Assembly (NCBI GenBank): GCA_041670805.1
Contig: JBAXYM010000003.1
Span: 16,406-80,405, forward strand
Source: Patescibacteria group bacterium
Lineage (GTDB): Bacteria; Patescibacteriota; Minisyncoccia; JAHIHE01; JAGLIN01
Reading direction: 5' to 3'
DNA: 64,000 nt
In this document: positions 3,719 to 34,765 of the stretch, in pieces
Numbering within the stretch: position 1 is the stretch's first letter
Layout: the number at the start of each line of letters is the position of its first letter
Notes under the pieces: generated by a model
Database searches by the model: none
The model's input: the letters and a program-made list of their open reading frames with translations, nothing else
Told to the model about the DNA's origin: nothing
Program-made: the position numbers and the translations under genes

Positions 3719-3738
3719 TCTATAGTTTTTGAAATATT

Positions 3739-4809
3739 ATGCCAGAAGGCGAAGAAAAACAACAACAAACAGGAGCAAACAAGACGGCGAAAACATTCGG
3801 GTCGCCTTTTGGTGCGCTTTCGGGCAGTGACAACAGACAGCCGGACCTGAGTTCGGAAGATAAAAATAAAATCGAAGCGAAAGTTTCGGCAAGGACTCTG
3901 GAGAAAAAGGGGGCGTCAAAAAGAGGAGGGGCTTTAGGCGAAACACCCGGGGGCTTTAGGGCGAATGAAGATTTGTCGGACAAGATAAGAACCGACTCAG
4001 CGAGAAGAGGAAACTCCGAAAAAGAGGATGGTATAGCGCAATCGGATACTCAATCAAATTCCACGAATCCGATTTCGGAGGAGCAGTACAACAAAAACCA
4101 AGCGGAAGGAATAATGAATAAACCTCAAAGCGTCAGAAGTGTGCGTGAAGAAATGCAAAAAAGAAATATGCAATCCAATCCGCATCTTTTTCAGCGCCGT
4201 GGGAAAAATGGCGAGGTCGGAATGGGAAGACCGGTGTCTTTTTCCAATTCCAAGGGCATTGGCCCTAATGCGGTTATCGGATCGGAGAATAGGAGGTTGC
4301 CGGAATCCGGAACGTCGAGGACAACATCAGGTGCCATTTCCGGCGGAGGAGCGCAGAGAGCGGAAAATTCCACTGAAAGACGGCGGAAGGAAATGGATCT
4401 CAAGGGGAGAAAAAGGCTGGCTGAAAAATTTAAGACTAGAATGGCATCTTTGCAAGGAGGCCATGAAGAAATCAGCAGCTTTGATTATTTTTTGCTTTTT
4501 ATGATTTTTGCAATTTCGGTGGCAGCGGATATTCTGGATCTGGTTATAGATCTAACCGGCGTAGGCGCTTTTTTTGCTCCCATTATGAGTCTGTTTACGA
4601 CGATTATTTTGGCCATTTTATGGTGGGTGGTTGGCGGAGAGTACCGGGCAAAAAATTTGAAGGGACTGGGTGTCGCGACTTTTGTAGAAGCCATACCTCT
4701 CGTAGATCTTTTGCCAACCAATACTTTCGAGTCCGTTAAAGCTCTCATGCTTATGATAAGCGGTAAAAAAGCAGGGAAAGCGGCAAGTAATGGAAATTCT
4801 TTCTTTTAA
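3739..4809 (+). CDS. Hypothetical protein: low-complexity G/R/S/E-rich N-terminal ~240 aa with a C-terminal multi-TM region
   Basis: 356-aa ORF directly after virB4; C-terminal hydrophobic helices (FLLFMIFAISVAADILDLVIDLTGVGAFFAPIMSLFTTIILAILWWVVGG). Confidence 0.4.
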   Translation: MPEGEEKQQQTGANKTAKTFGSPFGALSGSDNRQPDLSSEDKNKIEAKVSARTLEKKGASKRGGALGETPGGFRANEDLSDKIRTDSARRGNSEKEDGIAQSDTQSNSTNPISEEQYNKNQAEGIMNKPQSVRSVREEMQKRNMQSNPHLFQRRGKNGEVGMGRPVSFSNSKGIGPNAVIGSENRRLPESGTSRTTSGAISGGGAQRAENSTERRRKEMDLKGRKRLAEKFKTRMASLQGGHEEISSFDYFLLFMIFAISVAADILDLVIDLTGVGAFFAPIMSLFTTIILAILWWVVGGEYRAKNLKGLGVATFVEAIPLVDLLPTNTFESVKALMLMISGKKAGKAASNGNSFF

Positions 4810-4975
4810 TCCGCGTCTTTTATGGATGTATGATGGCTACTGGTCCTTATCTGTTTACCGTCGATTTCGCATTGATTTACCGTGTATGATGAACTCAATG
4901 ATGAAGTTAAGAAAAATTTTCTTGATTTCTCAGTGAAGTTATTAAACAGTCAGATTAAAATCTAATAATACGAAA

Positions 4976-6385
4976 ATGAAAAAGAATGCTCTTGCGGTCT
5001 TTTTGGCGATGTCCGTGTTTTGGGCGTCCGGGGTCTATGCCGCCGATACCCCTGCCCCTGTCCCTACCACTACGGGATACGAACCTTTAGTGAAAATTCC
5101 GGGAGTTCCCGATGGAGTCGTGGATATATCAAAATATATCATAGGAATATATGATTTTCTTTTGAGTATTGTCGGAATCGTGGCGGTGGCGATGTTGATT
5201 ATCGGGGGGATGAAATATATTACCGCGGCCGGAAGCGGCGGTGCAGTGTCCAGCGCCAAAGAAACTATCAAGGACGCTCTCTTGGGTCTTGTTTTGGCGC
5301 TGCTTTCCGCCGTAATTGTGAGCACTATCAACCCCGATGTACTTTATTTGCGCCAACCGGGGGCGGCCTTGACGAAGGATAATACAATTTCTTCCAGTGC
5401 CAGCGGGACTTTCACTACTAACCAGGATGGGACTGTCACCTACACCAGCCTTGAAGGGTATGAAAGAAAAATGAGCAAGGAGTCGGCGGATAAGGTGAGG
5501 TCAGGGGAAATAAAAGTTGAGTTTAACGCAAACGAGAAACTTGCGGCGATGAAGAAAAATTTGTCTTGTATCGCTCCCGGTTCTCCTTCCGGCAACAGTG
5601 ATCCCAGTTATAGGCAAAGCGGCGGAAAATGTACTTGTATAACCGGGTATGAGGCTATTTTGCCCGAGGGGCAGACCAACTGTAATGTGGTGTGTGAAAA
5701 TGCAAATGCGTGCGGATATAAATTCATTTCGATCAATCTTAACGCCAGACATGGTTATACCCAAAATGAGAGTTCTAAAGAGGCCGGCGATGCCGTTACC
5801 GACACCGACACCGCTGACAGTTCCGATACGGATACTGTTTCCAATCTTCCTGAATATGATCTGACTAATGATGCCCAAATACACTCCGATGAGTTATTGG
5901 AGATGGAGGGAACCAATGATTCGACTTGGGGGGATTTCAATATTGTTTATGATACAATCGAGAAGAGGCAAAATTTACAAACGGGAAAATGGGAAGAGAT
6001 AAAGCTTGATGCACCTAAGCGATACGTGGAGACCGGTACGGAAATTTATCCTTGCGCCATTTTGGTGACGAATGATAAAGAAAAAAGCAGTGATGATCAA
6101 CATTTTGTTTATTGGGTGCCACTGGGAACGACGGTGGGCGAAAATAACAATCTTTTTGCTGATATTAAGGGCGGATATAGAGGAGGGTGCGAAAAGGATA
6201 AGCCCGGGTATTATAATATCGTTGCAGGGTCTTGTGATCAAGCATGGACGGATCGTGTTATGCTGGCTAAATATTCAGATAAAGTGACGGACAAGTGTAC
6301 GTTTTGTGATTTGGCGGAAGGAGAAGACGAAAAGATTTATCGTTTCGAGAATACATATACTTGCAAAAGCGGTTATTGGCAATAA
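4976..6385 (+). CDS. Pilin-like (VirB2/TrbC-type N-terminal core) protein with a large Cys-rich extracellular C-terminal domain; candidate pilus tip or adhesin
   Basis: Signal peptide MKKNALAVFLAMSVFWASGVYA; pilin-like core IIGGMKYITAAGSGGAVSSAKETIKDALLGLVLALLSAV as in the four small paralogues at 56.6-58.3 kb; ~330-aa C-terminal domain with more than 20 Cys. Confidence 0.45.
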   Translation: MKKNALAVFLAMSVFWASGVYAADTPAPVPTTTGYEPLVKIPGVPDGVVDISKYIIGIYDFLLSIVGIVAVAMLIIGGMKYITAAGSGGAVSSAKETIKDALLGLVLALLSAVIVSTINPDVLYLRQPGAALTKDNTISSSASGTFTTNQDGTVTYTSLEGYERKMSKESADKVRSGEIKVEFNANEKLAAMKKNLSCIAPGSPSGNSDPSYRQSGGKCTCITGYEAILPEGQTNCNVVCENANACGYKFISINLNARHGYTQNESSKEAGDAVTDTDTADSSDTDTVSNLPEYDLTNDAQIHSDELLEMEGTNDSTWGDFNIVYDTIEKRQNLQTGKWEEIKLDAPKRYVETGTEIYPCAILVTNDKEKSSDDQHFVYWVPLGTTVGENNNLFADIKGGYRGGCEKDKPGYYNIVAGSCDQAWTDRVMLAKYSDKVTDKCTFCDLAEGEDEKIYRFENTYTCKSGYWQ

Positions 6386-6950: not shown

Positions 6951-7074
6951 ATTGAAGGTTAGGAACAGGGAAGATGGTCCCGAAAGACCGGTTTTGGTAG
7001 AAAATTTTTGCCCATCGAACGCTTGCGGAAGAGGAGGAGACTCACCTAGCTATTCGGCAATATATGATTTTCCA

Positions 7075-7380
7075 AATCACACAAACAGTGCTGCCTCGCT
7101 CTGACGTAGTTCGTTGTATTTTGAATTATGGATTTTGAATTTATGGACCACATCAGAAATGATGTGAACCAAGCAAGGCAAAACGTTCTTGCGTAACATT
7201 CCACACCATCTCTGGTGTGGTCCGGATGCAAGAATGCATTTCTGGATTTCGAATTGTGAATTTCCGTATTTCGGATCACATCAGAAATGATGTGAACCAC
7301 GCGGGAGAGAACGTTCTTGCGTAACACTTCACACCATTTCTGGTGTGATCCGAATGCAAAGATGGCGTCTATTGTAAACA
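7075..7380. repeat. Two tandem IRE units (~100-nt inverted-repeat element family) plus flanking att-remnant region
   Basis: Units at ~7146-7233 and ~7272-7360: ggaYcacatcagaaatgatgtgaacc-(loop with AGAACGTTCT palindrome)-cacaccatYtctggtgtgRtcc; ORF 7046..7384 is a translation of this repeat. Confidence 0.7.
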
Positions 7381-7496
7381 CCACATTTTGCGTATGAGCG
7401 ATTTACCCTGCCAAGCATAAACTTCTCATCCCTCCTAAATGCGGAAGAGGAGGGATTTACCCGGCAGCGGGCATAAACTTCTCATCCCTCCTAAAT

Positions 7497-7622
7497 GCGG
7501 TGTAATCGGGTTAAGTACCCGTAACTTACAGTCAGTATAAGGCTTTTTAGGCGGTTTGGCTAGAAGGGGTTTTGAGGTACTCGGGTCGGGGTCTGAAATG
7601 GCAAAATGAGACAAATGAGACA
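7497..7622. repeat. ~126-bp direct repeat X (copy 1), left end of island A; second copy at 27593-27718 (~88% identity)
   Basis: gcggtgtaatcgggttaagtacccgtaacttacagtcagtataaggc...ggtcggggtctgaaatggcaaaatgagacaaatgagaca; a tRNA-Ser 3' fragment gcggaagaggagggatt sits at 7441-7457 just outside it. Confidence 0.7.
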
Positions 7623-7974: not shown

Positions 7975-8667
7975 TTGTTTTCTGGAGGAAAAGATTCTTT
8001 TCTTGCAACATGCAACCTGGCAGAAAGAGGCTTTAAAGTATATATGGTTACATTTGAAAACGGAGCTGGGCTAGGATCAAACAATGTCGAACACGGTGCC
8101 AAAAGGATTATTGCGCATTATGGAAAAGATAAGGCTGAATTCCTCGGCGTACAATGTACCGCGGGAATATGGCGAGAGTTTTTCCTGCCATATCTAAATA
8201 TGAAGCCAAGCGAAGTAATCAAGGAATATGGCGAATTGACCGTCTCGCAATTTAACTGCCTAACATGCAGATCAGCAATGTATATCTGGTCTATTATTAA
8301 GGCAAAAGAAAAAGGAATAAATTACATTGCAGACGGGGCTCGAAAAGATCAGGGATTTGTGATAGAATTACCCTGTATGATAGAGAAATTCAAAGAACTC
8401 ATGTCCGAATTCTCTATTGAACTTTTACTGCCCGTATGGGATTTAAATTCCGGCTGGGAACAAAAAAATCTTTTATTGAGAAGAGGATTCATCCCAAAAA
8501 CGCTGGAATCACAGTGCTTGCTTGGAGCTCCGCTACCAGAGGACAAACAACCGGAAGAGGAAATACAACAAGCGGTAGCAAGATATTTTGAAAAAGTTAT
8601 CTTACCAAGAGCGAGGAATTTAATCTCTTCTGAGTTAGAAATCAGACTAGGAGGAAAAAATGAGTAA
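7975..8667 (+). CDS. PP-loop ATP pyrophosphatase family protein (TtcA/TtuA/Dph6/DndC/QueC-like N-type ATPase)
   Basis: 230 aa; N-terminal PP-loop VLFSGGKDSFLA (SGGKDS), downstream Cys pairs (NCLTCRS); first gene after the island-A boundary. Confidence 0.6.
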   Translation: MFSGGKDSFLATCNLAERGFKVYMVTFENGAGLGSNNVEHGAKRIIAHYGKDKAEFLGVQCTAGIWREFFLPYLNMKPSEVIKEYGELTVSQFNCLTCRSAMYIWSIIKAKEKGINYIADGARKDQGFVIELPCMIEKFKELMSEFSIELLLPVWDLNSGWEQKNLLLRRGFIPKTLESQCLLGAPLPEDKQPEEEIQQAVARYFEKVILPRARNLISSELEIRLGGKNE

Positions 8668-9244
8668 AACAAAAACACAGACACAGGACAAAAGGAGCAG
8701 GAAATTTATTTTTATTCCTTTCTGTGTACTTTGCCAAGCCTTTCAGGCTCAAGGTATTGTCAGATATGATTTTTCTTCCGTAATGACTGACATTATAGAA
8801 GAAATAATGAAGCACGATCTGAATATAATTCAAATGCCTTGCCCCGAAAGCAAGCTGGGGGGATATAAAAACGGGTTGCAAAGACTTCCGCAAAGCATTA
8901 AAAAATATGATACTCCTGAATTCAGAGAAATTTGTATGAACTGCGCATCGGAGGTTATGGAGCAGATTAAAGCAATCCTAGAAAATGGATATGAAATAGC
9001 AGGTATTTTGGGAATAGAAAACTCTCCTTCATGTTCAATAAAATTGCAATATTCTAACAATGGTGCGTATCGTCAGCCGGGTATTTTTATTGAGGAATTA
9101 AAGAAACAACTTGAGCGAGATGGCATAGAGATTCCCTTACTAGGCATAAACCGAAGAGGAGTAGAAATAACATTAGTCAGGCTGAAACAGATGCTCGATA
9201 CAGATCAGGTATCTGTACAGCAAAAGAATTTGAATGAATTTTAA
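8660..9244 (+). CDS. DUF523/TudS-like [4Fe-4S] protein (divergent paralogue)
   Basis: 194 aa; FCVLCQAF and IQMPCPESKLGG motifs paralogous to the CPE motif of the next gene; start overlaps the PP-loop gene stop. Confidence 0.4.
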   Translation: MSKTKTQTQDKRSRKFIFIPFCVLCQAFQAQGIVRYDFSSVMTDIIEEIMKHDLNIIQMPCPESKLGGYKNGLQRLPQSIKKYDTPEFREICMNCASEVMEQIKAILENGYEIAGILGIENSPSCSIKLQYSNNGAYRQPGIFIEELKKQLERDGIEIPLLGINRRGVEITLVRLKQMLDTDQVSVQQKNLNEF

Positions 9245-9295
9245 TTGCTAACATTATTTTTTGTTAGCTTTTTTATTTTATAATTTCCAACCAAT

Positions 9296-9745
9296 ATGAA
9301 ACTTATCAGCGCCTGCCTGTGCGGAATAAACTGCGCATGGAATGGAAAATCAAAAATTTCCCCAAAGATACTTGAACTTGTAAAATCCGGAGAATTTATT
9401 CCTGTATGTCCGGAACAGCTTGGCGGGCTAAGCACTCCCAGAATTCCGCAAGAAATACAAGGCGGATCGGGGGAAGATGTTTTGGCGGGGAAGTGCAAAG
9501 TTATAAACAAAGAAGGAAAAGACGTAACCGCCCAATTCGTGAGAGGGGCGGAGGAAACATTGAAAATCGCAAAGCTCACGGGAGCGAAAAAATTTATTGC
9601 CAAATCAAAAAGCCCTTCCTGCGGCTGCGGCTTCACTTATGACGGAACTTTTTCCGGCACGCTGATTGAAGGTGACGGCGTTACCACGGCGCTCTTGAAG
9701 CGGAATGGAATAAAGGTGATAAGCAGCGAAAATATCGAGGGATAA
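9296..9745 (+). CDS. DUF523 family protein (2-thiouracil desulfidase TudS-like, Cys-ligated Fe-S cluster)
   Basis: 149 aa; LISACLCGINCAWNG ... FIPVCPEQLGGLSTPRIP ... KSPSCGCG conserved Cys pattern typical of DUF523. Confidence 0.55.
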   Translation: MKLISACLCGINCAWNGKSKISPKILELVKSGEFIPVCPEQLGGLSTPRIPQEIQGGSGEDVLAGKCKVINKEGKDVTAQFVRGAEETLKIAKLTGAKKFIAKSKSPSCGCGFTYDGTFSGTLIEGDGVTTALLKRNGIKVISSENIEG

Positions 9746-10086: not shown

Positions 10087-10722
10087 ATGGAACAACAAAT
10101 ATCTAGACGAACAGTCAAACAATGCTTGCCAGTTATTAATGCAGTGTATGCCTTTTTCGAAGTGCAAATAGTGGCATATGAGAACTTGGAAAAGAAAGAT
10201 GAGCTGTGCTTTTTTCATTTGGAAAAAGATTTCGGCATTCCCAAGCTATTAAGCGTAGGATATATCTTCGGCGAATGGCTAGAAGGATCAGATTTTATCT
10301 GCAATAAACTCTGCATCGTTAAAACAAATAAAAAGGCTAAGTGGCTTGATTTTATCAGATTGCTTGATAAAAAGATTAATGGGTACAAAGTTGATACTAA
10401 CATTATAGAAATATCTCTTGCATCGAATGGGATGATTTTCAGAAATATCAATGGAATGCGATATAGTTACGATTTTAAAAACGACGGCTTGAAGAAAAGA
10501 ATAATTGCTTTCCTCGCCGAGCAGAATGATTTCGTGCAAACAGCAGCTATCCAAAAATATGTTAAATCTACAAATGTAAAATCTTTTTCAGATGCTGTCG
10601 GGCAGATTAATTCCATTATGGAACAGAAATTGAAGCTACCTAAGGCGCAGAATTTAATCAAAAGCAAACGTGGCTCTGGTTATAGAATTAACCCGCTATA
10701 CAATATCATTTTGACCGATTAA
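10087..10722 (+). CDS. Hypothetical protein with a C-terminal OmpR/PhoB-type winged-helix-like motif
   Basis: 211 aa; C-terminal KSKRGSGYRINPLY resembles the wing of Trans_reg_C domains; no receiver domain. Confidence 0.3.
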   Translation: MEQQISRRTVKQCLPVINAVYAFFEVQIVAYENLEKKDELCFFHLEKDFGIPKLLSVGYIFGEWLEGSDFICNKLCIVKTNKKAKWLDFIRLLDKKINGYKVDTNIIEISLASNGMIFRNINGMRYSYDFKNDGLKKRIIAFLAEQNDFVQTAAIQKYVKSTNVKSFSDAVGQINSIMEQKLKLPKAQNLIKSKRGSGYRINPLYNIILTD

Positions 10723-10865: not shown

Positions 10866-12146
10866 ATGTCTACAAAACAAAGGTTAGAATGGCACACTGA
10901 AAAATGTTCGGTGGCAGAACTTATCCCCAATGACGAAAATCCCCGTGTAATGAGCCAGAAACAAATCGAGGATTTGAAAAGGAGTCTGCAAAAATTTAAT
11001 TTGGTTGAGATTCCTGTTATAGATACCGACAAAAAGGTGCTGGCAGGCCATCAAAGATTGATGGTGCTCAAATTGTTAGGACGAGAAAACGAGGTCATTG
11101 AAGTTAGAGTGCCGAATCGTAAATTGAGCCAGAGAGAATACGACCAATATTTACTTACGAGCAATCGTGTCCACGGTGATTGGGATTGGGAGAAGTTGGT
11201 ACAAAACTTCGATCTTGACCTCTTGGCTATTAGCGGGTTCGATGAAAATGATTTATCGCATCTCTTTGAAGACTTAACAGTAGAAGATGATGAATTTGAT
11301 GTTGAAGTGGAACTGGAAAAGATTAAAAAACCGAAGGCCAGGCTAGGAGATATTTATTTGCTTGGCAATCATAAATTAATTTGCGCAGATAGCACCGATC
11401 CTGAAACAGTCAAAAAACTATTTGGCAAAAACAAAGCGGATATGATTTACCAGGATCCGCCATACAACATCGGCCTGAATTACAACAAAGGGATTGGCGG
11501 CAAACAGCATTACGGCGGCACGGTTAATGATTCTAAAAGTGAGACCGAGTATAAAGAGTTTCTTGGAAAATCTTTGCAAAACGGACTTTTAGTCTGCAAG
11601 CCCGATGTCCATATCTTTACTTATTGCGACCAATCATATATATGGCTGTTTCAAATTCTTTATCAAGAATTGGGTATTCAAAATAGAAGAGTCTGCTTGT
11701 GGGTAAAGAATAGTTCCACGCCTACACCGCAAATAGCCTTTAATAAGCAATACGAACCTTGTGTTTACGGCACAATCGGCAGTCCTTTTCTTGCCGATAA
11801 AGTACTCAACTTATCAGAGATTATGAATAAAGAAATTGGCACAGGCAATCGCACACTGGAGGACATATATGATATGATCGATATTTGGCTTGTCAGAAAA
11901 CTGAGTGGCTCTGACTATCAACACCCAACCGAGAAGCCACCTATGCTTCATGAAAAAGCTTTGCGAAGGTGTTCCAAACCGGGCGATATTATCCTTGATT
12001 TATTTGCTGGTTCTGGGAGCCTGTTGATAGCTTGCGAACAATTAAAACGGTCTGCGTACTTGGTCGAACGCGAACCAGTATTTGTTGATTTAATAATTCA
12101 AAGATATGAGAAACTCACAGGAAACAAATCCAGAAAAATCTCTTAA
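10866..12146 (+). CDS. ParB-like nuclease domain fused to a beta-class N6/N4 DNA methyltransferase (phage/ICE-type orphan MTase)
   Basis: 426 aa; N-terminal ParB-N fold (ELIPNDENPRV...LAGHQRL); MTase motif IV IYQDPPYNIG precedes motif I DLFAGSGSLLIA; ~50% identical paralogue at 29378-30646. Confidence 0.75.
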   Translation: MSTKQRLEWHTEKCSVAELIPNDENPRVMSQKQIEDLKRSLQKFNLVEIPVIDTDKKVLAGHQRLMVLKLLGRENEVIEVRVPNRKLSQREYDQYLLTSNRVHGDWDWEKLVQNFDLDLLAISGFDENDLSHLFEDLTVEDDEFDVEVELEKIKKPKARLGDIYLLGNHKLICADSTDPETVKKLFGKNKADMIYQDPPYNIGLNYNKGIGGKQHYGGTVNDSKSETEYKEFLGKSLQNGLLVCKPDVHIFTYCDQSYIWLFQILYQELGIQNRRVCLWVKNSSTPTPQIAFNKQYEPCVYGTIGSPFLADKVLNLSEIMNKEIGTGNRTLEDIYDMIDIWLVRKLSGSDYQHPTEKPPMLHEKALRRCSKPGDIILDLFAGSGSLLIACEQLKRSAYLVEREPVFVDLIIQRYEKLTGNKSRKIS

Positions 12147-12891
12147 ACACGGCCAGATTTGGCAACTAGGCGATCATAAGTTGCTCTGCGGCAGTTCGTT
12201 GGATTCCGAGCTGGTGCAAAAGCTCCTTGCGGGTTCAAAAATAAATTCCATTATCACTGATCCGCCTTATGGCATTAGCTTTGTCGAGAGCAAAAAAAAT
12301 TTTTCTAAGGTAAAAGTGAACAAGAGAATTCTCAACGATAATATTTCCTCAGAGAAAGAATACTGCGAATTTACAAAGCAGTGGCTAAAAATTCCCTTGC
12401 TTTACCTAGCCAAGAAAAATAGCATTTATATCTTCAACTGTGATAAAATGCTCTTTGCCTTAAAAAAGGCGCTTGACGAACTTGATGTTTATTTCTCGCA
12501 ATTAATTATTTGGGTAAAGAATCATGCCGTAATCGGGCGTAAAGACTATCTGCCTCAGCATGAATTGATTTTATTCGGTTGGTTTGGCGCTCATGCTTTT
12601 AAGCGAAGTAAGGACAAATCTGTTTTGTTTTATCCAAAACCGAATAAGAGCAGTTTGCATCCTACCACCAAACCCATGGAATTAATCAGTCATTTAATAT
12701 TAAATTCTACCGATATCGGCGATACTATCTATGATTGCTTTGGTGGTTCGGGCACTTGCCTAATATCAGCCGAACTAACTAAAAGGCGCTGTCTAATGGT
12801 CGAGTATGACTTAGAATATTGTGCAATTATTATGAAGCGCTGGGCACATATAACTAAACAAGAAATTAAATTAATTTATGAAGAAGAATGA
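12106..12891 (+). CDS. DNA methyltransferase (beta-class N6A/N4C), second MTase of the module
   Basis: 261 aa; ITDPPYGISF then DCFGGSGTCLISAE; start overlaps the upstream gene (translational coupling). Confidence 0.7.
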   Translation: MRNSQETNPEKSLKHGQIWQLGDHKLLCGSSLDSELVQKLLAGSKINSIITDPPYGISFVESKKNFSKVKVNKRILNDNISSEKEYCEFTKQWLKIPLLYLAKKNSIYIFNCDKMLFALKKALDELDVYFSQLIIWVKNHAVIGRKDYLPQHELILFGWFGAHAFKRSKDKSVLFYPKPNKSSLHPTTKPMELISHLILNSTDIGDTIYDCFGGSGTCLISAELTKRRCLMVEYDLEYCAIIMKRWAHITKQEIKLIYEEE

Positions 12892-13297
12892 TCAAAACAA
12901 AAAATTATTGCTTGAACAGCTGAGCAAAACACCAATTATTCAAATTGCTTGCGAAAAACTGGGGATTGCCCGTCCGACTTTTTATCGCTGGAAAGCGCAG
13001 GATAAGGAATTCGGTAGGCAGGTCGATGAAGCAATCAGAGGCGGTAGATTGCTGGTTAACGACTTAGCTGAAAGCCAATTAATTAGTGCCGTCAAAGACA
13101 GAAATATCCAGGCCGTTATGTACTGGCTTAAACATCATCACGTGGATTATAGGAATCGTCTGGAAATTGACGGAAACATAAATACCAGCCAAGAATTATC
13201 ACTTGAACAACAAACATTAATTAAGAAAGCCCTTGAGTTTGCTTCCTTTGACCTAGAGCAGAAACAAGATATTAAAACCAATGAAAACGATAGCTGA
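12878..13297 (+). CDS. HTH protein, terminase small subunit-like
   Basis: 139 aa; IACEKLGIARPTFYRWKAQDKEF HTH; directly upstream of and overlapping the TerL-like gene; paralogue at 31389-31898. Confidence 0.4.
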   Translation: MKKNDQNKKLLLEQLSKTPIIQIACEKLGIARPTFYRWKAQDKEFGRQVDEAIRGGRLLVNDLAESQLISAVKDRNIQAVMYWLKHHHVDYRNRLEIDGNINTSQELSLEQQTLIKKALEFASFDLEQKQDIKTNENDS

Positions 13298-14714
13298 ACA
13301 AACCTACGAGTTGATGTCCGATATTATTAGGGATAAAGATATTCGTACCAAAGTAGCCACCGAAAGCCACTATTGGTTTTTTCATATTTATTTTCATCAT
13401 TATGTTAAATATCCAACCGCTGATTTTCAGAGAGAACTATTTGCTATTACCCAAAGCGATAATATCAGCACGGCTGTCATTGTAAGTTTTCGCGGTTCGG
13501 CCAAATCAACTATCATGACTATGTCATATCCAATCTGGTCAATTCTAGGCAAACAACAGAAGAAGTTTGTTATAATTATCAGCCAAACCCAGTATCAGGC
13601 CAGGATGCATTTAAGCAATTTGAAGCGGGAGCTGGAAAGTAATCGACTATTGCGCTCCGAACTGGGGCCATTCGAAGAAAAGAATGAAGAATGGGGTTCT
13701 ACTTCGTTGGTAATTCCTAAATTCAATGCCCGTATTACCGCCGCTTCTTGTGAACAAAGTGTGAGAGGCCTGCGGCATGGAGCCAACCGTCCCGACCTTA
13801 TAGTCTGCGATGATGTCGAAGATTTAAATTCAGTTAAAACGCGGGAAGGGCGTGATAAAACTTATAATTGGCTGACGGGAGAAGTAATTCCTTCCGGTGA
13901 TCGGAGCACTAAAGTGGTTGTTGTCGGCAATTTATTACATGAAGACAGTTTGCTGATGCGGCTTAAGGCCAATATTGAAGAGAATAAATTAAATGGTATT
14001 TTTAGAGCTTATCCTCTGACTGATCATCGAGACCAAACAAATTGGCCTGGCAAATTTCCTACCAAGGAATTGATTGATTTGGAGAAAATGAAAGTAGGCA
14101 ATGAAATTTCTTGGCAAAGAGAATATTTATTGAGAATTGTACCTAATATCGGACAGGTCGTGCACAGGGAATGGATTCATTATTATGATGTGCTTCCACA
14201 ATCTTCTGAACATTATACATCCACGGTTAGTGGTGTTGATCTGGCTATCTCCAAAAAAGATACCGCGGATTGTACAGCCATTGTGTCAGCCAAAGTTTAT
14301 TCCATTGACGATAGTTTTAAACTTTATATCTTGCCTAATCCGATCAATGAAAAAATGGAATTTCCAGATATGATTAGAAAAATAAAGGCATTAGAAACTG
14401 TTCTTGGCTACAGTATGATATATGTTGAAGATGTCGCTTTTCAAGCTTCTTTGTATCAGCAATTAATTGAAAAAGGAATTCCTGCTGAAGGGGTAAAAAT
14501 ACATGGTCAGGATAAATTATCTCGATTGACGCTAACCACTGCTCTAATCCAATCCGGAAAAATTATTTTCCCTCGAAAGGGCACTGAAAGGCTAATTGAA
14601 CAAATGCTTAACTTTGGAATCGATAAGCACGATGATTTAGTCGATGCTTTCACTTTATTAGTACTAAAGGTTGCAAATAACAATTACAGTATGCCAAGAG
14701 TCGTTTTGCTTTAA
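13281..14714 (+). CDS. Phage terminase large subunit-like ATPase/nuclease
   Basis: 477 aa; Walker A SFRGSAKSTIM, Walker B LIVCDDVEDL, C-terminal RNaseH-like nuclease signature GVDLAISKKDTADCTAIV ... IDKHDDLVDAF. Confidence 0.55.
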   Translation: MKTIAEQTYELMSDIIRDKDIRTKVATESHYWFFHIYFHHYVKYPTADFQRELFAITQSDNISTAVIVSFRGSAKSTIMTMSYPIWSILGKQQKKFVIIISQTQYQARMHLSNLKRELESNRLLRSELGPFEEKNEEWGSTSLVIPKFNARITAASCEQSVRGLRHGANRPDLIVCDDVEDLNSVKTREGRDKTYNWLTGEVIPSGDRSTKVVVVGNLLHEDSLLMRLKANIEENKLNGIFRAYPLTDHRDQTNWPGKFPTKELIDLEKMKVGNEISWQREYLLRIVPNIGQVVHREWIHYYDVLPQSSEHYTSTVSGVDLAISKKDTADCTAIVSAKVYSIDDSFKLYILPNPINEKMEFPDMIRKIKALETVLGYSMIYVEDVAFQASLYQQLIEKGIPAEGVKIHGQDKLSRLTLTTALIQSGKIIFPRKGTERLIEQMLNFGIDKHDDLVDAFTLLVLKVANNNYSMPRVVLL

Positions 14715-14802: not shown

Positions 14803-17430
14803 TTACAAAACTATTTCAGATATAGAAGCTGATTTACTTTTATCTAGAGAATTTGCTTTTATAAACAATTCTATGGCCTCTTTCTCGCTTTTGTCTGACC
14901 AAGCTTTATCTCCTAATTCAGCCAAACATACACTGAATTTATCTGGATTGTAGGCGATCTTAAAATCATTATACTGGAAATATTTTTCCTTTTTATAGTC
15001 TAGTCCTTCTTTCACAAAATGCTTCAAGAAGAAGCCAGTATCTCTCGGATTTTTTCTAAATGTTTTTATGAGGTAATCAGTTACTTCCTCATTACGATCT
15101 CTATCTTCGTCGCTCCAATCAACCGCCCATTGAAAGAGAATAATGGCGAACTCGTTATATTTTTTATACTGTGTAAAAACATTCCTATTTTCCTTAATAA
15201 AATATTTTTTTAATCGTTTTTTGATGATATTTTTTAGTTCTTCATGATTAATATTCTGATGAATTCTATATAAACTGCTGCTTCGACCCTCACTGCAAGA
15301 AAGAACTACCGTAGAAACAAAATCCAAACGTTCTGTTCGTTGAATAATTTCCTTTAAAATCCCTTGAATCTGGTTTTCTTCTATTTTCTTATTGTCTTCC
15401 AATAACCGAAAAATTAATCCGTATGCTTGATTATATTCGTTGTCCCACAAATCTCCACTTTGCATAAATCTGTTACAATTTTGATAAATAACTCTAATCA
15501 ATGTTAGGGCAATCTCTTTGTTAACCTCTTTTGCATACAACTTAAGAAGGTGCAAAAGATCAATTAGTTTTAATTCTTTTTGGTATTTTTCAAAAAACGA
15601 TATTTTGATGTCATTTTCTAAATTATCAGAAAGCTTCCATGCTTTGAGTATGTCATCAAATTCAGAATCAGATATTACGTTTTCACGCACTCCTAATGTA
15701 AAATATTTATAAAAACAATCCGGGTGAGCTATTCTCCTTTTAATTCTGTACTCTTCGACCAAACCTCCATAGCTGTTATTATCAAATGCATTTTTTATCT
15801 CTGGAAAAATATCCTCCAGCAAAGATATAATTATTTTATTATTTTGTGTAATTATTTCTATATGACTCTTTATAGTTTCTCTTTTTTCTCTATCATCATA
15901 TGGCAGGTAAGTATATGCTCTAAGCTCCAAAGACCAAGGAGAGACATAAAACCACCAGTTTTTTCTTATATCATTATATATATCTGGAAAGAAAGTATGA
16001 AAGATTTCTAAAATGAAAAAATCGTATAAGTGTATTTCACGTTCTATAAACGGCAACCTAAAGAAGATACTATTAAGATAACGTTTAGCGGCTCTATATG
16101 TGGGGAAAAATGGTTTTAAATTAGATTGATAAGTTTTTGTAAACTCTTCATCAAACTCCTTTCTTCTAATGCTATCGATCTTGATACCATCAAAAAATTT
16201 ATCAATTTCTGATATGCGTCCGGAATCTGGATATGAAAATAGTAGAAAGTCATCAATCTTTCTATGATCAGTCGATGGCAAATATATCGGCAATTGAATG
16301 ATTTTTTCAACATAATTCACAGGATCGCCTATCTCCTTGTTATTTTGTAAAATTGAAGATACTATCGAAGGGTCAAAACAAAGTAAAAAGACCATATTAT
16401 TCATACGGCTTGTTAGTTTTACAAGCCGGAATACAGCTAGAATCTCATTAGCCTGAAGACGATCAACATCGTCTATAATAACTAAAACTCTCTTGTCTAG
16501 TGAAGCTACAAATTTTTCAATTTTTTCCTTGAGCTTCAACGGTCGATCTTCGGTATTATTATGTAACTGTAAAGATAAATTTGCAAAACCCTTGATTAAT
16601 ACCTCTGGATAGAAATTAAGATAATTCTTCACTTTGTTAGGCACTAAATACTTTTCTTCTAACAACTTCTCTAATCCATGATAAAAGTTCACCGTTAAAG
16701 CATCTTTTTCTCCGAAGAACCAAGGATCAAATTCATAAACTAGCAGTTGTTGGTCATTTTCCAGCTCTCTCTTAAGTAAGTTTAAGACAGATGTTTTACC
16801 TTCCCCCCAACATCCATATAGACCCATGACGAATGATTCTTTAAAAGATAATTTATAAATGTTATCTTTTAATGCATCGGCGAATCTCTTTCTTCCAATT
16901 AGGTCATTGCCATTATCGTTTATCGGCTCATCTGTTAACAGCTTTGTTTGTTCGCCAAGACTATCTATCAATTGATTTTCTATTTTTTTCTCTTTGATTG
17001 TAGACAATAGAGCCTTCAGATATGTTGCTAAAGCAAAAAATATTATAGGGAATAAGACAACTCGAAAGCAAGGTAAATCTAGAAAATGTTTTGATAATAA
17101 CCACCATATGCCTAAAAAACTGACTAAAGACAAACTATCAACAGCAGAAAACTGTGGTTGTTTTATGAAATAAGATTCTCGGTATTTGCGCCAAATTGAA
17201 ATGCCTTTTTTCCAAACGGCTCCAAATATTACTAACTCAAATAATATAATATATTGTGGTGCAGGCAAAAATGGAATAATACTATCAAAAAAATCTTTTA
17301 TATTTGATTGAAAAATTCCAGCAATCCAAAAAAGAAACATACCTGCTGCCGATGAAAGCAGTAAGTCATTAAAATTTATTTGAATATAATTTAAGAGTGC
17401 TACAATTTCTTTGTTTAGGAAATATTTCAT
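14803..17430 (-). CDS. KAP-family P-loop NTPase with four N-terminal transmembrane helices
   Basis: 875 aa; P-loop GLYGCWGEGKTSVLNLL; Walker B-like VLVIIDDVDRL; N-terminal TM segments; adjacent to the type III R-M pair. Confidence 0.55.
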   Translation of the reverse strand: MKYFLNKEIVALLNYIQINFNDLLLSSAAGMFLFWIAGIFQSNIKDFFDSIIPFLPAPQYIILFELVIFGAVWKKGISIWRKYRESYFIKQPQFSAVDSLSLVSFLGIWWLLSKHFLDLPCFRVVLFPIIFFALATYLKALLSTIKEKKIENQLIDSLGEQTKLLTDEPINDNGNDLIGRKRFADALKDNIYKLSFKESFVMGLYGCWGEGKTSVLNLLKRELENDQQLLVYEFDPWFFGEKDALTVNFYHGLEKLLEEKYLVPNKVKNYLNFYPEVLIKGFANLSLQLHNNTEDRPLKLKEKIEKFVASLDKRVLVIIDDVDRLQANEILAVFRLVKLTSRMNNMVFLLCFDPSIVSSILQNNKEIGDPVNYVEKIIQLPIYLPSTDHRKIDDFLLFSYPDSGRISEIDKFFDGIKIDSIRRKEFDEEFTKTYQSNLKPFFPTYRAAKRYLNSIFFRLPFIEREIHLYDFFILEIFHTFFPDIYNDIRKNWWFYVSPWSLELRAYTYLPYDDREKRETIKSHIEIITQNNKIIISLLEDIFPEIKNAFDNNSYGGLVEEYRIKRRIAHPDCFYKYFTLGVRENVISDSEFDDILKAWKLSDNLENDIKISFFEKYQKELKLIDLLHLLKLYAKEVNKEIALTLIRVIYQNCNRFMQSGDLWDNEYNQAYGLIFRLLEDNKKIEENQIQGILKEIIQRTERLDFVSTVVLSCSEGRSSSLYRIHQNINHEELKNIIKKRLKKYFIKENRNVFTQYKKYNEFAIILFQWAVDWSDEDRDRNEEVTDYLIKTFRKNPRDTGFFLKHFVKEGLDYKKEKYFQYNDFKIAYNPDKFSVCLAELGDKAWSDKSEKEAIELFIKANSLDKSKSASISEIVL

Positions 17431-17434: not shown

Positions 17435-19840
17435 TTAGAATATAATACTATTCCATCCCTTCATCGTTGGAGTATATGAATAATTTTTATCCTGATTAAT
17501 TTTCCACCCGTTGGCATCCTTAACTGCAATTCCACCACAAAAATTCTTTTTTCCCGCTAACCATTCCTGCAAAGCTTCGGCTTTATATTTTGTATCATTT
17601 GATTCGGCAGTAAAGCCTGCTTTAGTATCAATTATCCAAATCTTGTTTTTGGTCTTTATAATCCAGTCAGGATAAAATAGTTTTTCTTTATTCTCGTCAG
17701 GGTTATAATAAGAGATTGAGAAATATTCACTACCAGAATCTCCATTTTTATACCACCATTCAATATCGTTGCTTTCTTCTAAGAATTTAATAAAGAATTT
17801 TTCATTTTCTACTACTTCCTTGCTAATATAGAACGGCTCCATAGCAGAATATTTAACTTTCATATCCTGATAACTATCAGTAAAAAATAAAGAAGGTCTA
17901 GGTATCTCTATAATCTCAATTCTCTTGGAACGAACAGCTTTCTTATTTACTTCCTGGTCGCGGATAGGCCTATAAGTCTCCAATGCCTCTCCGATAATAG
18001 GACGTAAAACTCCAGATTCCTTCAGAATGTCATTTAGTATTGCCTTGTAAGCATCATTACGATTATCACCAAGCATTGGAATTAGCCATACATTTAAAGC
18101 GGTTTTTAATTTTCCCCAAGAACGTTCTGGTGCAAATTTCTTATTCTCATCCGTCTGCTTGCTAATAATATTAAAGCAGACAAGGTTGTATAATCTCTCA
18201 ATATCGTTTTGAGACATTTCTTGATCATGATTTCCTCCCTCGGCTAATAATTCTTTAACGAAATTATCGTAATCATCAATTTCCACACCGACAATAATTC
18301 CGTTAGTTACGCTTGGTTTTATGTCAAAATCCTTGGCAATCAGCTTTTTTTTAGCATCTTTATCTCCGTCTTTAATCCCAAAATATTTATTAGCTATTTT
18401 TTTAAAAGTAGTCTGGAATGAATCGCCGAGATCGTTATAGTCCGAACGGCCCATAAATACTGATTCGATCTGGATTGGCTCAATATTCTTTTTGCGATAA
18501 CTGCCAAAAATTGCCGGTTTATTTTCAGATTTATTCTTGTCATATTCACTAATTACCTCATTGCGTTTATAATTAGTATACAAATAACCTAAATTTAGTT
18601 CTGGTTTGCCATAATGGGTGCCAGTTGGCATGCGAAGAATCCTACCTACAGTTTGAATGGCAAAGGTAGGATTTTTTATTTCCCTAAACATAACCAGCAC
18701 ACCAGCACGAGGACAATCCCAGCCAGTGGCTACGGCTTGTTTGAAGAGTAAAAATTCAATCGGAGAATCGTTCTTTTCAATGTCATCAAGATTAACTTTA
18801 TCTTCAGACAGCCAAATAGCGATGTTATTTTCTAAAACACCTTTCTTTTTTAAAAATTCTACAACTATATCTTGTTTGCTAGTACTGCTTGTTTCCGCCG
18901 AAGCTTTGTCATCATTCGGAAGTTGAATAAGTACCAGGGGATTAATATCTAAACCTAATTCCTTGTAGTATTTTACCAGCTCAATTCGTCTATTATATGC
19001 AAGCTCAAGAAGAATCTCATCTTGATCCATATGTTTGAATTGTTTTTGATTCAAATCTTCTTCGGTCTGAAAAATAATCTTTTCTTTTATTAGTCCTTCT
19101 CGCACAACATCTTCACGTTTCACTCGAACAAACCCAGCTTGATTGTCTTCTATGTCGCTAAGAGTCGGTTCGTATTTTGGAGTTGCAGAAGCACGGATGA
19201 TGATTTTAGGTTTAATTAAACCATCAATAAGTTCAAGAGCTTTGTCGGTGTCAGCTCCAAGATGTTCTTCATCAATAATCACTATGATTTCCCTTTTCTC
19301 TTCATGAGTAGCCTCAATCATTCCATCAAAAGAAACATCCTGTTCGTTTTCACGCCTAATTTTTAAAACTTCTTTCGATTGTCCTTTTAATTTTTCCCAA
19401 TTTATGAAAAAAACACTGTTGTGAGTAAGTACCTTGTGATTAAGATCATTTATATCCAAAAGCTCCAATTCCGAAGCGCCGCCATAATACTCAAAGAGCT
19501 TATTCTTGCTCTGCTCAACAAGAGTAGGGCCTTTGGACATCCATAAAAAAGCAGCGTCGTTACCAACAAAACGAGGATCAGAAACAATATCACGTAAAAA
19601 TTGTGCTAACATCACAGTTTTTCCTGACCCTGTTGGAGATTTGAAAACTAGAGGCAGTTGATTTTCAGAAGTTTTCCATAAATCTAAAAACTGATCTTTA
19701 AGTTTAGCTATGGCAGTTTCCTGAAATGGTTTTAGTGCAAACATATTATAGGCGATTAATTTCTTTATAAACTTCAAGAATTGGTTCTGGAATATCTTCA
19801 ACATGAATATTGTCAGAGCTATATTCGTTGGTATACTCAT
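17435..19840 (-). CDS. res: Type III restriction enzyme Res subunit (SF2 helicase-nuclease)
   Basis: 801 aa ORF; motif I FKSPTGSGKTVMLAQF, motif II IIDEEHL; a likelier start is the internal Met at 19744 (MFALKPFQETAI), which removes the 95-nt overlap with mod. Confidence 0.65.
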   Translation of the reverse strand: MSIPTNIALTIFMLKIFQNQFLKFIKKLIAYNMFALKPFQETAIAKLKDQFLDLWKTSENQLPLVFKSPTGSGKTVMLAQFLRDIVSDPRFVGNDAAFLWMSKGPTLVEQSKNKLFEYYGGASELELLDINDLNHKVLTHNSVFFINWEKLKGQSKEVLKIRRENEQDVSFDGMIEATHEEKREIIVIIDEEHLGADTDKALELIDGLIKPKIIIRASATPKYEPTLSDIEDNQAGFVRVKREDVVREGLIKEKIIFQTEEDLNQKQFKHMDQDEILLELAYNRRIELVKYYKELGLDINPLVLIQLPNDDKASAETSSTSKQDIVVEFLKKKGVLENNIAIWLSEDKVNLDDIEKNDSPIEFLLFKQAVATGWDCPRAGVLVMFREIKNPTFAIQTVGRILRMPTGTHYGKPELNLGYLYTNYKRNEVISEYDKNKSENKPAIFGSYRKKNIEPIQIESVFMGRSDYNDLGDSFQTTFKKIANKYFGIKDGDKDAKKKLIAKDFDIKPSVTNGIIVGVEIDDYDNFVKELLAEGGNHDQEMSQNDIERLYNLVCFNIISKQTDENKKFAPERSWGKLKTALNVWLIPMLGDNRNDAYKAILNDILKESGVLRPIIGEALETYRPIRDQEVNKKAVRSKRIEIIEIPRPSLFFTDSYQDMKVKYSAMEPFYISKEVVENEKFFIKFLEESNDIEWWYKNGDSGSEYFSISYYNPDENKEKLFYPDWIIKTKNKIWIIDTKAGFTAESNDTKYKAEALQEWLAGKKNFCGGIAVKDANGWKINQDKNYSYTPTMKGWNSIIF

Positions 19841-21470
19841 TCTTGCCCCAACTGAAAATATATAGGGCAGCAGGTTGCTTTCTTTTTTCTAATATACCAA
19901 CTAGGTTATGTAATTTCTCTTTGTCCTCCTTAAAGTAAATAGCTGTAATTTTTCCCAATCCTTCAAATATTTGCCACCAATTATTTTTCTCAACTTCATT
20001 TAATGTGCTTTCGCGCAAAGCAATCATTTCACCAGCCTGATAAGTTAACTTAATTTTTGCATTATCTGGTGTACCATGTAATTTTTCGATATCGACCAAA
20101 TCAGTTTTATAATAGCGAAGATTGCCACCTAAGCCTTCTACTTGCTCTCCTTTTTTATTTTTATACCCCTTCATTACACGCTTAATTCGTTCATATGTTA
20201 CTTCTTCACAGATGTTATTTTCGTTATTTGTGCATAGAATAAATTTGCGGTTCCCGCCATCTTGTTTATTTAATTCAAGAACAGCATGGCCGGTAGTACC
20301 TGAACCCGCAAAAAAATCAAGTACTTTAATGTTTTTTGTGATTGATCCCATTTCAATGATTCTCTTTATCATTTCTACTGGCTTTGGATATCCGAATATC
20401 TTTTTTTCAAGAATTTCCTTTAGCAGCAATGTTCCTTTTTCTGTATTTACATCTTTATCGTCCCAAATCGAGCGCACCATCTTTTCTTTCTTTCTATATT
20501 TTTCAACTATCTGATATCCGCCATCTTGCATCTTTTTCGCAGCTATTTCAATATTAAGATTTTCTAAGGATTTAGACTTACCCCATCTCCAGACTGTTTT
20601 TATGCCCTGTGACTCTTTAGGAAAAAGCTCAAACCAGCCAGGCTTTTTATCTAGGGATATTTCAAAAAAACCGTTGTCTAATTGTTTATTAGGATTGATA
20701 TAAAAGGGGTAATAAAGATTCGGTCTATTTTTATCATTAAAAGCAATGTTGCGATTCCTTAATTCTCTGGTTTCAAATCCGCCTAATGCATCCTGAAACG
20801 GAAATTCCTTATTCTCATCAGATATGCTGAATATTTCAGATTGATCAGTTGATGAATACACCAAAACATAGTCGTGCATTCTAGCAACGCCACCATAGTC
20901 ACGTCCTCGAGGGTTACCTTTAACGGTTATAGATGCTCGATAATTATTTTCTCCAAAAATAATATCACAGAGTGATTTTAAATTTGCATACTCATTGTCA
21001 TCTATGCTAATAAAAATTAGGCCTGTTTTCTTAAGTAAGTTTCTTGCTAAGGTTAGCCTATTATACATAAAAGAAACCCACTTGCTGTGACGAAAGTTAT
21101 CATCCAAATCCACAAATTTATCATTATAGGCAAAATCTTGATTGCCGGTGTTATAGGGCGGATCAATATATATGACATCAAAACTATTTTTATGGGTATA
21201 ATTCAGAACTGTTAAGGCATGATAATTATCCCCCTCAATCAAAATATTTTCATCCTTCGATTTGTCTGTGATAATCACAGGATCGATTTCCTTCCTTTTT
21301 TCTTTTAGTTGTAGGATAGGTATATTGCGTTTACAATCCATAACAATTTCTTCTGGTTTATCTTCCCAAACTAAACCATAAGTTTTTTGCTTCTTAATTT
21401 TCTTAAGCTCAGTTTCTAGCTCGGAAATTCTCTGCAATAGGGTTTTTTCTTTATTTTGATCCAACATCAT
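19746..21470 (-). CDS. mod: Type III-like DNA methyltransferase (Mod), beta-class N6-adenine MTase
   Basis: 574 aa; motif IV VIYIDPPYNTGN followed by motif I VLDFFAGSGTTGHAV; immediately upstream of res on the same strand. Confidence 0.7.
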   Translation of the reverse strand: MMLDQNKEKTLLQRISELETELKKIKKQKTYGLVWEDKPEEIVMDCKRNIPILQLKEKRKEIDPVIITDKSKDENILIEGDNYHALTVLNYTHKNSFDVIYIDPPYNTGNQDFAYNDKFVDLDDNFRHSKWVSFMYNRLTLARNLLKKTGLIFISIDDNEYANLKSLCDIIFGENNYRASITVKGNPRGRDYGGVARMHDYVLVYSSTDQSEIFSISDENKEFPFQDALGGFETRELRNRNIAFNDKNRPNLYYPFYINPNKQLDNGFFEISLDKKPGWFELFPKESQGIKTVWRWGKSKSLENLNIEIAAKKMQDGGYQIVEKYRKKEKMVRSIWDDKDVNTEKGTLLLKEILEKKIFGYPKPVEMIKRIIEMGSITKNIKVLDFFAGSGTTGHAVLELNKQDGGNRKFILCTNNENNICEEVTYERIKRVMKGYKNKKGEQVEGLGGNLRYYKTDLVDIEKLHGTPDNAKIKLTYQAGEMIALRESTLNEVEKNNWWQIFEGLGKITAIYFKEDKEKLHNLVGILEKRKQPAALYIFSWGKNEYTNEYSSDNIHVEDIPEPILEVYKEINRL

Positions 21471-21691
21471 ATATTTTAATTTTCATCATTGTTAATTTTT
21501 CAATAATAGTTTTTACAACCTATTAGAAATCGGTATTAAACTATCGTTACTTTACCTCTTTTTACGCTAAAAGTAAAGAAAAATTGGCAATTCCATATCG
21601 TTTAGAAGACTTAAGTTATCAACAGCTAGTAGTCTGGACGCCCCGCGTGCTATGTGTCATTCATTGTAGTGTAATAAATAAGGGAAAATGT

Positions 21692-27330: not shown

Positions 27331-27543
27331 ATTTTTACCTTCATTTATATGTTGAAAAGATAGACACCTGATCTGCTTTCATATTTATAATATGCCTTAA
27401 AAAGACCGAAAAGTAAAGAATAAAATGAACTTACTATCAGTCAAACGGTAGTGGTTTTTGCTTATAACAAAAACCAGATCCAATTGGATCTGGTTTCACG
27501 CAGGGGGTATGTTTGGTTTGTCCTTGTAGTTTAACATAGAAAA

Positions 27544-32806: not shown

Positions 32807-33067
32807 AGTTTTGTAGGATAGGTTTTTTAAATTGTTTCTGGCTCAGAATACAAAAAGGGTCTTCCGAACCAGCTGGTGAATCCTTCCGGAGACACCACTA
32901 CCTCCTTTCGAAGATAGACCTATCCTACAAGTACTAGTCAGAAGACCGTTGCTATGTAGGATAGGATTTGATTACCATGCCCTGACCGAAGCCAGAGTTT
33001 AGGCAATTTATGAGTATATAGTAGCACAAATATAGAAAATGGGAAGTCTTAGTTACCTACAGTTTAT

Positions 33068-34722: not shown

Positions 34723-34765
34723 CCTCTTAGTATTAATTTATTATTTTGAATTGTTAATTATATAT

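Follow-up and report, generated by a model that had tools for sequence, protein, structure and literature searches.

Two tandem, capsid-less elements with a phage-type terminase operon and defence cargo at a tRNA-Ser gene of a Patescibacteria bacterium: candidate phage satellites

The stretch of DNA analysed here, called the window, comprises 64,000 nucleotides (nt) of contig JBAXYM010000003.1 from a Patescibacteria group bacterium (assembly GCA_041670805.1, positions 16,406 to 80,405). Repeat and junction analysis resolves in it two elements of ~20 kb that lie head to tail and occupy the 3' end of a tRNA-Ser(CGA) gene (Table 1), and their limits are supported by the lower G+C content inside them, 0.30-0.40 versus 0.43-0.51 in the flanks. 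Both elements encode a packaging module, which consists of a protein with a ParB-like and a DNA methyltransferase domain (ParB-MTase), a second methyltransferase (MTase) and a small terminase subunit (TerS), and in Element 1 also of a large terminase subunit (TerL). A preliminary description of this DNA had presented two such modules as islands A and B; the modules are real, but they are only the packaging parts of two complete ~20-kb elements with large serine recombinases (LSRs), tRNA-Ser attachment (att) sites and defence cargo.

Three types of junction are found, B-GCGG-P', P-GCGG-P', and P-GCGG-tRNA. The P arm beside the tRNA gene (47854-47908) recurs at 27539-27593, where it is joined via GCGG to the P' arm (27598-27697), and the P' arm in turn recurs at 7501-7600, joined via GCGG to the host flank. 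Between the elements, the P' arms are 88% identical (7497-7600 versus 27594-27697) and the P arms 81% (27539-27617 versus 47854-47932), and a GGGT motif is present in both P arms. As in other LSR elements, attL and attR share a short core, the sole common core being the 4-bp GCGG at tRNA positions 71-74; the CCA end of the tRNA is restored by the P arm of the element, which also brings a terminator-like hairpin. A contig from a near-numbered sample also has this P arm (93% identical over 57 nt), with GGCGG again as the point of fusion but with another gene, tRNA-Ser(UGA), as the partner and with different cargo beside it, so that the junction has the same position in a second tRNA-Ser. At the level of sequence this is direct evidence of a mobile, site-specific element to which the P arm belongs, and the second tRNA-Ser junction indicates past mobility.

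To the left of attL, an unoccupied pseudo-attB combines the B arm (100% identical) with GCGG and with 17 nt that copy the tRNA-Ser 3' end (7441-7457). It originates from the duplication of the left flank (7400-7500), and a degenerate copy of the tRNA-Ser end is also located at 7025-7041. Classical 17-bp direct repeats of the tyrosine integrase type, suggested by the copy at 7441-7457, were rejected, as the inter-element junction and attL share GCGG alone and because no tyrosine integrase is encoded inside the elements either.

The LSR is the only recombinase of each element and is encoded internally; no tyrosine integrase was found inside either of them. Both LSRs possess the domains Resolvase (PF00239), Recombinase (PF07508), and Zn_ribbon_recom (PF13408), and the catalytic serine (S28) is invariant in 26 sequences. 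The nearest named family is CcrB (2e-33) of SCCmec, a staphylococcal cassette chromosome (SCC) element, although with 116 bits versus a family cut-off of 900 bits the LSR is only distantly CcrB-like. A conserved 150-nt block (21537-21690) precedes the LSR gene of Element 1, and the two LSR genes together with ~150 nt upstream (21537-23014 versus 42179-43651) are 82-93% identical in DNA, the flanking cargo being unrelated. These similarities suggest a recent exchange of the recombinase cassette together with the att arms. As the LSRs are 91.5% identical versus 39-55% for the proteins of the packaging modules, the elements are mosaics with a common integration specificity.

The preliminary description had assigned four open reading frames (ORFs) at 10866-14714 to ParB-MTase, MTase, TerS, and TerL, and they lie exactly there, with identities borne out by profile matches. 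In the ParB-MTase of copy A the DPPY motif precedes the FAGSG motif, the N-terminal part matches the ParB-like phrog_620 (1e-21), the catalytic part N6_N4_Mtase (1e-29), and the whole protein phrog_498 (1e-93). The TerS-like helix-turn-helix (HTH) protein shows further TerS-family matches (24579 and 1482), and its family profile aligns over the full length to a bona fide TerS from a phage with portal and capsid genes (hhalign 89.6%, E 1.9e-6); a comparison by sequence with solved structures gave no significant match. Terminase profiles, proposed earlier as a check, gave for TerL not only the strong phrog_38 match but also the TIGR01630 C-terminal domain above the curated cut-off. TerL possesses a Walker A (FRGSAKS) and a Walker B motif (LIVCDDVED), and its ATPase domain aligns to T7 gp19 (PDB 4bij). 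Among 24 TerLs that are 53-64% identical, 86 columns are invariant, including the Walker A lysine, the Walker B acidic residues, and the acidic residues of the nuclease domain, which argues that TerL is still functional. The parts of a phage terminase holoenzyme, i.e., an ATPase with Walker A and B motifs, an RNase H-like nuclease domain, and a small DNA-binding subunit encoded upstream, are therefore present.

Successive genes of copy A overlap by 41, 14, and 17 nt, in line with the overlaps noted before; 41 nt is also the median for the ParB-MTase/MTase overlap in 28 relatives, and at 80 related loci 83-93% of the module gene pairs overlap, all overlaps being somewhat inflated because ORF calling picks the longest ORF. 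Copy B was said to keep the first three genes at ~50-55% identity, which holds for the ParB-MTase (53.4%) and the MTase (54.9%) but not for TerS, which falls below this range (39.3%). It was also said to lack TerL, which is indeed cleanly missing there, as a tblastn search (E<=10) detected no remnant of it elsewhere in the window. Given the strong profile matches and the synteny across many genomes, chance is not a plausible explanation for the module. The 211-aa protein encoded upstream of module A has homologs at the equal position in L037, L054, L080, L102, and L106, and a protein identical to TerL comes from a metagenome-assembled genome labelled 'Patescibacteria group bacterium' and is encoded on contigs of JGI sample 3300014206 and of ENA and Logan assemblies.

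Table 1. Features of the two elements and of their junctions (positions refer to the window).
Feature	Position	Strand	Remarks
Element 1	7501-27597	+	20,097 bp; G+C 0.31-0.40; defined by junction anatomy and composition
Element 2	27598-47912	+	20,315 bp; defined by junction anatomy
Pseudo-attB (J1)	7400-7470		Unit 1 of the tandemly duplicated left flank (54-56 bp); unoccupied
attL (J2)	7471-7530		Host B arm, GCGG core 7497-7500, P' arm of Element 1 from 7501
attP-like inter-element junction (J3)	27539-27697		P arm, GCGG 27594-27597, P' arm
attR (J4)	47854-47996	-	P arm with terminator-like hairpin, GCGG 47909-47912, intact tRNA-Ser(CGA) 47907-47996
ParB-MTase, copy A	10866-12146	+	426 aa; ParB-like domain (GHQR motif) and beta-class DNA MTase
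Second beta-class DNA MTase, copy A	12106-12891	+	261 aa; N6_N4_Mtase 2e-29
TerS, copy A	12878-13297	+	139 aa; phrog_309 1e-9, also phrog 4044 and 4102
TerL	13281-14714	+	477 aa; phrog_38 8e-76
ParB-MTase, copy B	29378-30646	+	ParB_N 8e-9, N6_N4_Mtase 2e-28
MTase, copy B	30606-31370	+	
TerS, copy B	31389-31898	+	No TerL after it
LSR A	21692-23014	+	440 aa; catalytic motif YARKSTES
LSR B	42332-43651	+	91.5% identical to LSR A
Left-end cargo, Element 1	7975-9745	+	PP-loop-like 230-aa protein and two DUF523/2-thiouracil desulfurase paralogs
Hypothetical 211-aa protein	10087-10722	+	Directly upstream of module A
PifA-like KAP NTPase, Element 1	14803-17430	-	
Type III restriction subunit, Element 1	17435-19840	-	
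Type III methylase, Element 1	19746-21470	-	
Hypothetical 515-aa protein, Element 1	23004-24551	-	
Superfamily 1 (SF1) helicase, Element 1	24622-27330	-	902 aa; end-to-end match to PADLOC candidate defence model PDC-S53, 1356 bits
Hypothetical 299-, 367-, and 142-aa proteins and a 181-aa protein, Element 2	within 31907-42122	-	
LOOT RNA, Element 2	32875-33005	-	Rfam RF03000; 63.7 bits versus gathering score 46.4; full length
AAA_13/PDC-S06 ATPase, Element 2	34766-37174	-	
Helicase-nuclease, PDC-S37/Hhe-like, Element 2	37376-41566	-	1396 aa
SEC-C-motif protein, Element 2	43662-45152	-	
LexA, Element 2	45229-45834	-	TIGR00498 equivalog cut-off passed
DUF6791-ThiF E1-like protein, Element 2	46210-47385	+	Overlapping pair with DUF6527 protein, beside attR
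DUF6527 protein, Element 2	47369-47791	+	

In siphophages from IMG/VR (e.g., L132 and L153), whose TerLs are 38-46% identical to the TerL of the element, the genes follow in the order ParB-MTase, MTase, TerS, TerL, portal (phrog_2662), protease, major capsid protein (phrog_10), adaptor, and tail. The same order of ParB-MTase, MTase, TerS, and TerL is shown by cultured streptococcal phages, with Streptococcus phage Javan244 as an analog. The TerS profile of the elements is homologous to the TerS of one such IMG/VR phage. The module therefore represents the beginning of a phage late operon that was captured once and retained without virion genes. The module is thus, as judged by homology and synteny, phage-derived, as had been proposed, its genes standing in real phages directly upstream of those for portal, protease, and capsid. 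In a neighbor-joining tree the phage TerLs cluster apart from 145 TerLs of capsid-less loci, 102 of which have an LSR in view, and homologs of the phage portal, capsid, or protease occur within 10 kb of TerL at none of these 145 loci. Similarly, no capsid, portal, tail, or lysis family of PHROG or Pfam was matched among the ORFs inside the element boundaries, a scan that took in all larger ORFs (about 140 aa and above) of both elements, so that the earlier claim that capsid, portal, and tail genes are missing stands. With 20.1 and 20.3 kb and no head, tail, or lysis modules between the att sites, the elements do not qualify as complete temperate prophages. The genes outside the module and the LSR are, according to their profile matches, mostly of defence type and constitute cargo of the elements, not separate features; the only helicases of the window match the defence models PDC-S53 and PDC-S37.

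Thousands of TerL relatives exist at 52-65% identity, and confirmed ones come from at least 569 GTDB species-representative genomes and from 350 IMG/VR contig stretches; their lineage was taken from record titles, most of which name Patescibacteria lineages. The 80 best genome loci of TerL relatives, 78 of them scored for upstream genes, share a common order that consists of a small variable gene, ParB-MTase, the second MTase (in ~1/3 of loci), TerS, TerL, 0-12 cargo genes, and LSR. A ParB-MTase is encoded upstream of TerL in 73 of the 78 loci and TerS directly upstream in 65, with TerS and TerL genes overlapping in 85% of those loci. An LSR on the same strand is located downstream of TerL in 53 loci, where 67 have at least 3 kb of downstream sequence, and directly adjoins TerL in 27. 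Also downstream, a minus-strand tRNA gene is found in 21 of 60 loci (12 Ser, the rest Gln, Asp, Glu, Trp, and Tyr), and many of the tRNA-bearing loci show a (C/G)GGTC motif ~25 nt from the tRNA 3' end. Just upstream of the module, on the opposite strand, about a third of the loci (about 29 of 80) have a LexA-family gene. Clustering of the 80 loci revealed no further conserved large family, including no replication family.

When IMG/VR was scanned with the LSR as anchor, the LSR was nearly always accompanied by ParB-MTase and TerS, and about a quarter of these loci lack TerL, as Element 2 does. In addition, the TerL position is taken by a different protein in two loci, L167 and L168; in the former (L167:8562-9887) this protein is a TerL of another family (phrog_2 type). 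TerL is therefore exchangeable or dispensable, as expected if it must match the helper. Tandem arrays recur among the relatives, and two TerL paralogs occur in tandem in L028, L040, L095, L097, L098, L100, and L101. The candidate L176 was rejected as a terminally redundant contig, since it is a tandem array with a period of ~12 kb. Despite nearly wholly different cargo, Elements 1 and 2 differ in length by 218 bp; a capsid-size constraint, considered because of these near-equal lengths, was dropped as the unit spacing in tandem arrays of relatives is apparently ~8-28 kb.

We consider it most likely from these sequence comparisons that the islands are helper-dependent satellites. The LSR would catalyze integration and excision at the tRNA 3' end, a role attributed to it because it is the only recombinase present and because the 4-bp core is of the serine-recombinase type. 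The elements would spread as phage satellites in that, after excision, TerS would recognize the element's own DNA and TerL would cut it and pump it into procapsids of a helper siphophage, presumably from the lineage that gave the module, and Element 2, which is without TerL, would use a TerL supplied in trans. The two orphan MTases might methylate the DNA in advance and so protect it from restriction in the next host, LexA, encoded in Element 2 and in ~1/3 of the relatives, may link induction to the SOS response or DNA damage, and the defence cargo would pay for the upkeep of the element in its host. Helper hijacking and an anti-restriction role of the MTases, both put forward in the preliminary description, are thus plausible proposals. 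To this combined account, i.e., tandem, phage-derived, site-specific, capsid-less elements that spread as satellites, we assign a probability of about 0.6. Its structural part alone (site-specific tRNA insertion, mosaic tandem elements, a conserved and seemingly functional terminase operon, defence cargo, and no virion genes) appears highly probable. A wider proposal, that we are dealing with an undescribed, phylum-wide Patescibacteria satellite family that combines a terminase (TerS, mostly together with TerL) with a ParB-MTase, has no capsid or replication genes, inserts by LSR into tRNA genes, and serves as a major vehicle of defence systems, is made tentatively and we would give it somewhat less than even odds.

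Among known systems, the elements would seem to work most like phage-inducible chromosomal islands (PICIs) or the PICI-like element (PLE) of Vibrio cholerae. With PICIs such as the Staphylococcus aureus pathogenicity islands (SaPIs) they share site-specific islands of 10-20 kb, an own TerS, the absence of virion genes, accessory or defence cargo, and a repressor. The comparison with PICIs made in the preliminary description therefore holds for a TerS that occurs without virion or lysis genes but not beyond, since the recombinase is an LSR instead of a tyrosine integrase at one end, no replication module with an own primase or replicase and no genes for capsid-size redirection were found, and most copies have their own TerL. 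Also in contrast to PICIs, the ParB-MTase is a constant core gene and the host is a bacterium of the Candidate Phyla Radiation (CPR). Capsid-forming PICIs (cf-PICIs) are satellites that likewise encode both TerS and TerL, but they also encode capsid, portal, protease, and connector proteins, and neither portal nor capsid nor protease was found in the window or within 10 kb at the 145 loci. PLE has a size of ~18 kb and possesses its own replication initiator. As its integrase, this satellite uses an LSR (PMC9618062). Besides the LSR, a defensive role, in PLE directed against the helper phage, is common to PLE and the present elements, which differ in that no replication initiator was found, no sequence relationship exists, and the target is a tRNA 3' end. 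SCCmec-type elements resemble them through the nearest named family of the LSR, CcrB. Like them, SCC elements, whose recombinases are CcrA/B or CcrC, form tandem composite arrays at one att site and carry variable cargo and no autonomous transfer genes; their target is rlmH (orfX). The CcrB score far below the family cut-off, the tRNA target, and the phage packaging operon set the present elements apart from SCC. Temperate siphophages (Javan244, L132, and L153) match them in the order ParB-MTase, second MTase, TerS, and TerL; in those phages, however, TerL is succeeded by the genes for portal, protease, capsid, connector, and tail, whereas in the elements the LSR or defence cargo takes their place.

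Other explanations account for parts of these observations. The module might act mainly within the cell and not in transfer, either as a decoy terminase that hampers the packaging of incoming phages or as a restriction-modification-like combination of the TerL nuclease with MTases that shield self DNA, in which case mobility would be due to the LSR alone, as in SCC. The elements are packed with defence genes, their LSR has CcrB of SCCmec as nearest named family, and SCC elements form tandem arrays without possessing transfer genes, all of which would suit such a role. In addition, satellite TerS proteins are able to interfere with helper packaging (PMC9618062). However, TerL is missing in about a quarter of the LSR-anchored loci and swapped in others while ParB-MTase, TerS, and LSR persist, which speaks against TerL as an effector nuclease, and the module has the gene order and the overlaps of a phage packaging operon. 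In known satellites, interference does not preclude transfer. We consider a mainly cell-internal role, which would be compatible with satellite behavior, unlikely. Alternatively, decayed prophage remnants could have gathered at a tRNA hotspot, with the packaging genes as leftovers without present role. Decay would agree with a module order that equals the start of a phage late operon, with the loss of TerL from Element 2, with the degenerate tRNA-end scars at 7025-7041 and 7441-7457 as marks of repeated events at the site, and with the KAP gene that is split in the assembly of another sample (L002). Nevertheless, an intact backbone of three to five genes, with the LSR directly after TerL, is present in most of the 80 best loci, which bear labels from many CPR lineages, the catalytic residues of TerL are invariant at 53-64% identity, no structural-gene fragments occur at any of the 145 loci, and independent decay would not be expected to converge on one architecture. 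Decay is thus quite improbable.

The module might also be the packaging part of a system resembling a gene transfer agent, or of a split prophage, the genes for head and tail being located at another place in the same genome. Of this genome only 64 kb are visible, and TerL is unusually well conserved (52-65%) across labels of many CPR lineages, as one might expect of such a system. In contrast, the module has no fixed chromosomal locus but resides on a mobile element that is site-specific, varies in its cargo, and has different tRNA targets, and tandem as well as TerL-less copies are not expected of a domesticated single-copy system; in our judgement this proposal is slightly less probable still than decay. 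The preliminary description had named a further possibility, that the small HTH proteins, instead of being TerS, represent transposase fragments of the IS3 OrfA type, and there are weak matches to Pfam HTH_Tnp_1_2 (27.2 bits, cut-off 27.9) and HTH_Tnp_1 as well as a phrog_157 'transposase' match limited to residues 3-54. However, TerS families match more strongly (phrog_309 1e-9), the family profile shows a full-length alignment with phage TerS, TerL follows in 65 of 78 loci with 85% of the pairs overlapping, and no OrfB/DDE gene was seen adjoining, so this possibility is rejected. Of the two findings that, according to the preliminary description, would speak against its reading, adjoining structural phage genes and an IS3 OrfA identity of TerS, neither was obtained.

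Several points weigh against helper-dependent satellites. No helper phage was identified and there is no evidence of excision; an empty attB reconstructed from B arm, GCGG, and tRNA was not found in metagenome contigs, and none of 16 whole IMG/VR contigs tested has terminal repeats or circular ends. Unit lengths of ~8-28 kb in the tandem arrays of relatives do not reveal a capsid-size constraint, and with 64 kb of the genome visible, structural genes might be located elsewhere. PICI, P4, and PLE satellites all have a replication module, and none is conserved in the present family; moreover, we know of no characterized satellite that has TerL but no capsid genes. Regarding control by LexA, the operator GAAC-N4-GTTC is absent from the window, no palindrome is common to 26 lexA-upstream regions, and the LexA gene of the window does not adjoin the packaging module.

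A large part of bacterial diversity belongs to the CPR, yet very little is known of the phages and mobile elements of these bacteria; according to a preprint of 2025 (10.1101/2025.02.15.638363), it is unknown if their viruses have satellites, and no prior description of such elements was found in the literature. The module itself is ordinary phage equipment, and the interest lies in a capsid-less, tRNA-targeting, defence-laden family across CPR bacteria, which with a TerL relative in at least 569 species-representative genomes is a concrete and widespread satellite candidate. If the satellite account is true, these would be the first satellites known for CPR phages and would represent a 'terminase-only' strategy, raising the question of how a satellite's own TerL docks on a foreign portal. 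The family would also help to explain the movement of defence systems between CPR genomes, it supplies serine recombinases directed at tRNA 3' ends, and its defined att sites make excision and packaging directly testable.

Some features of the cargo and of the surroundings deserve mention. The PP-loop-like and DUF523 genes at the left end of Element 1 may function in nucleobase modification or defence, and the 515-aa protein may be a partner of the SF1 helicase. In the assembly of another sample (L002:8380-11006), two ORFs of 319 and 566 aa take the place of the single KAP NTPase gene of Element 1. The E1-like/DUF6527 pair of Element 2 shows weak matches only, to E1 models of CBASS and 6A-MBL. 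LOOT RNA is situated between two hypothetical cargo genes, and further copies of its GTAGGATAGGT motif are present near 21309-21320 and 32812-32825. A terminator-like hairpin (29312-29340) that directly precedes ParB-MTase B has the same stem (ACCCAGC...GCTGGGTATT) as the P-arm hairpin, and ~350 nt upstream of it lies a promoter-like site (11-of-12) at 28962-28991; together they could form a regulated leader, and promoter and terminator scans did not exceed shuffled expectation.

Just beyond attR, an ORF of 1213 aa without Pfam match (48158-51799, minus strand) has an extreme AT skew of -0.3 to -0.5. Just outside the left end of the elements, two 122-nt tandem repeats (7115-7364) are 80% identical, each with a strong hairpin whose 27-nt arms are 93% complementary. 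Further into this host flank, the plus strand encodes a VirB4/TraG-like ATPase and a protein with a type IV secretion system (T4SS)-pilin domain (1871-6385).

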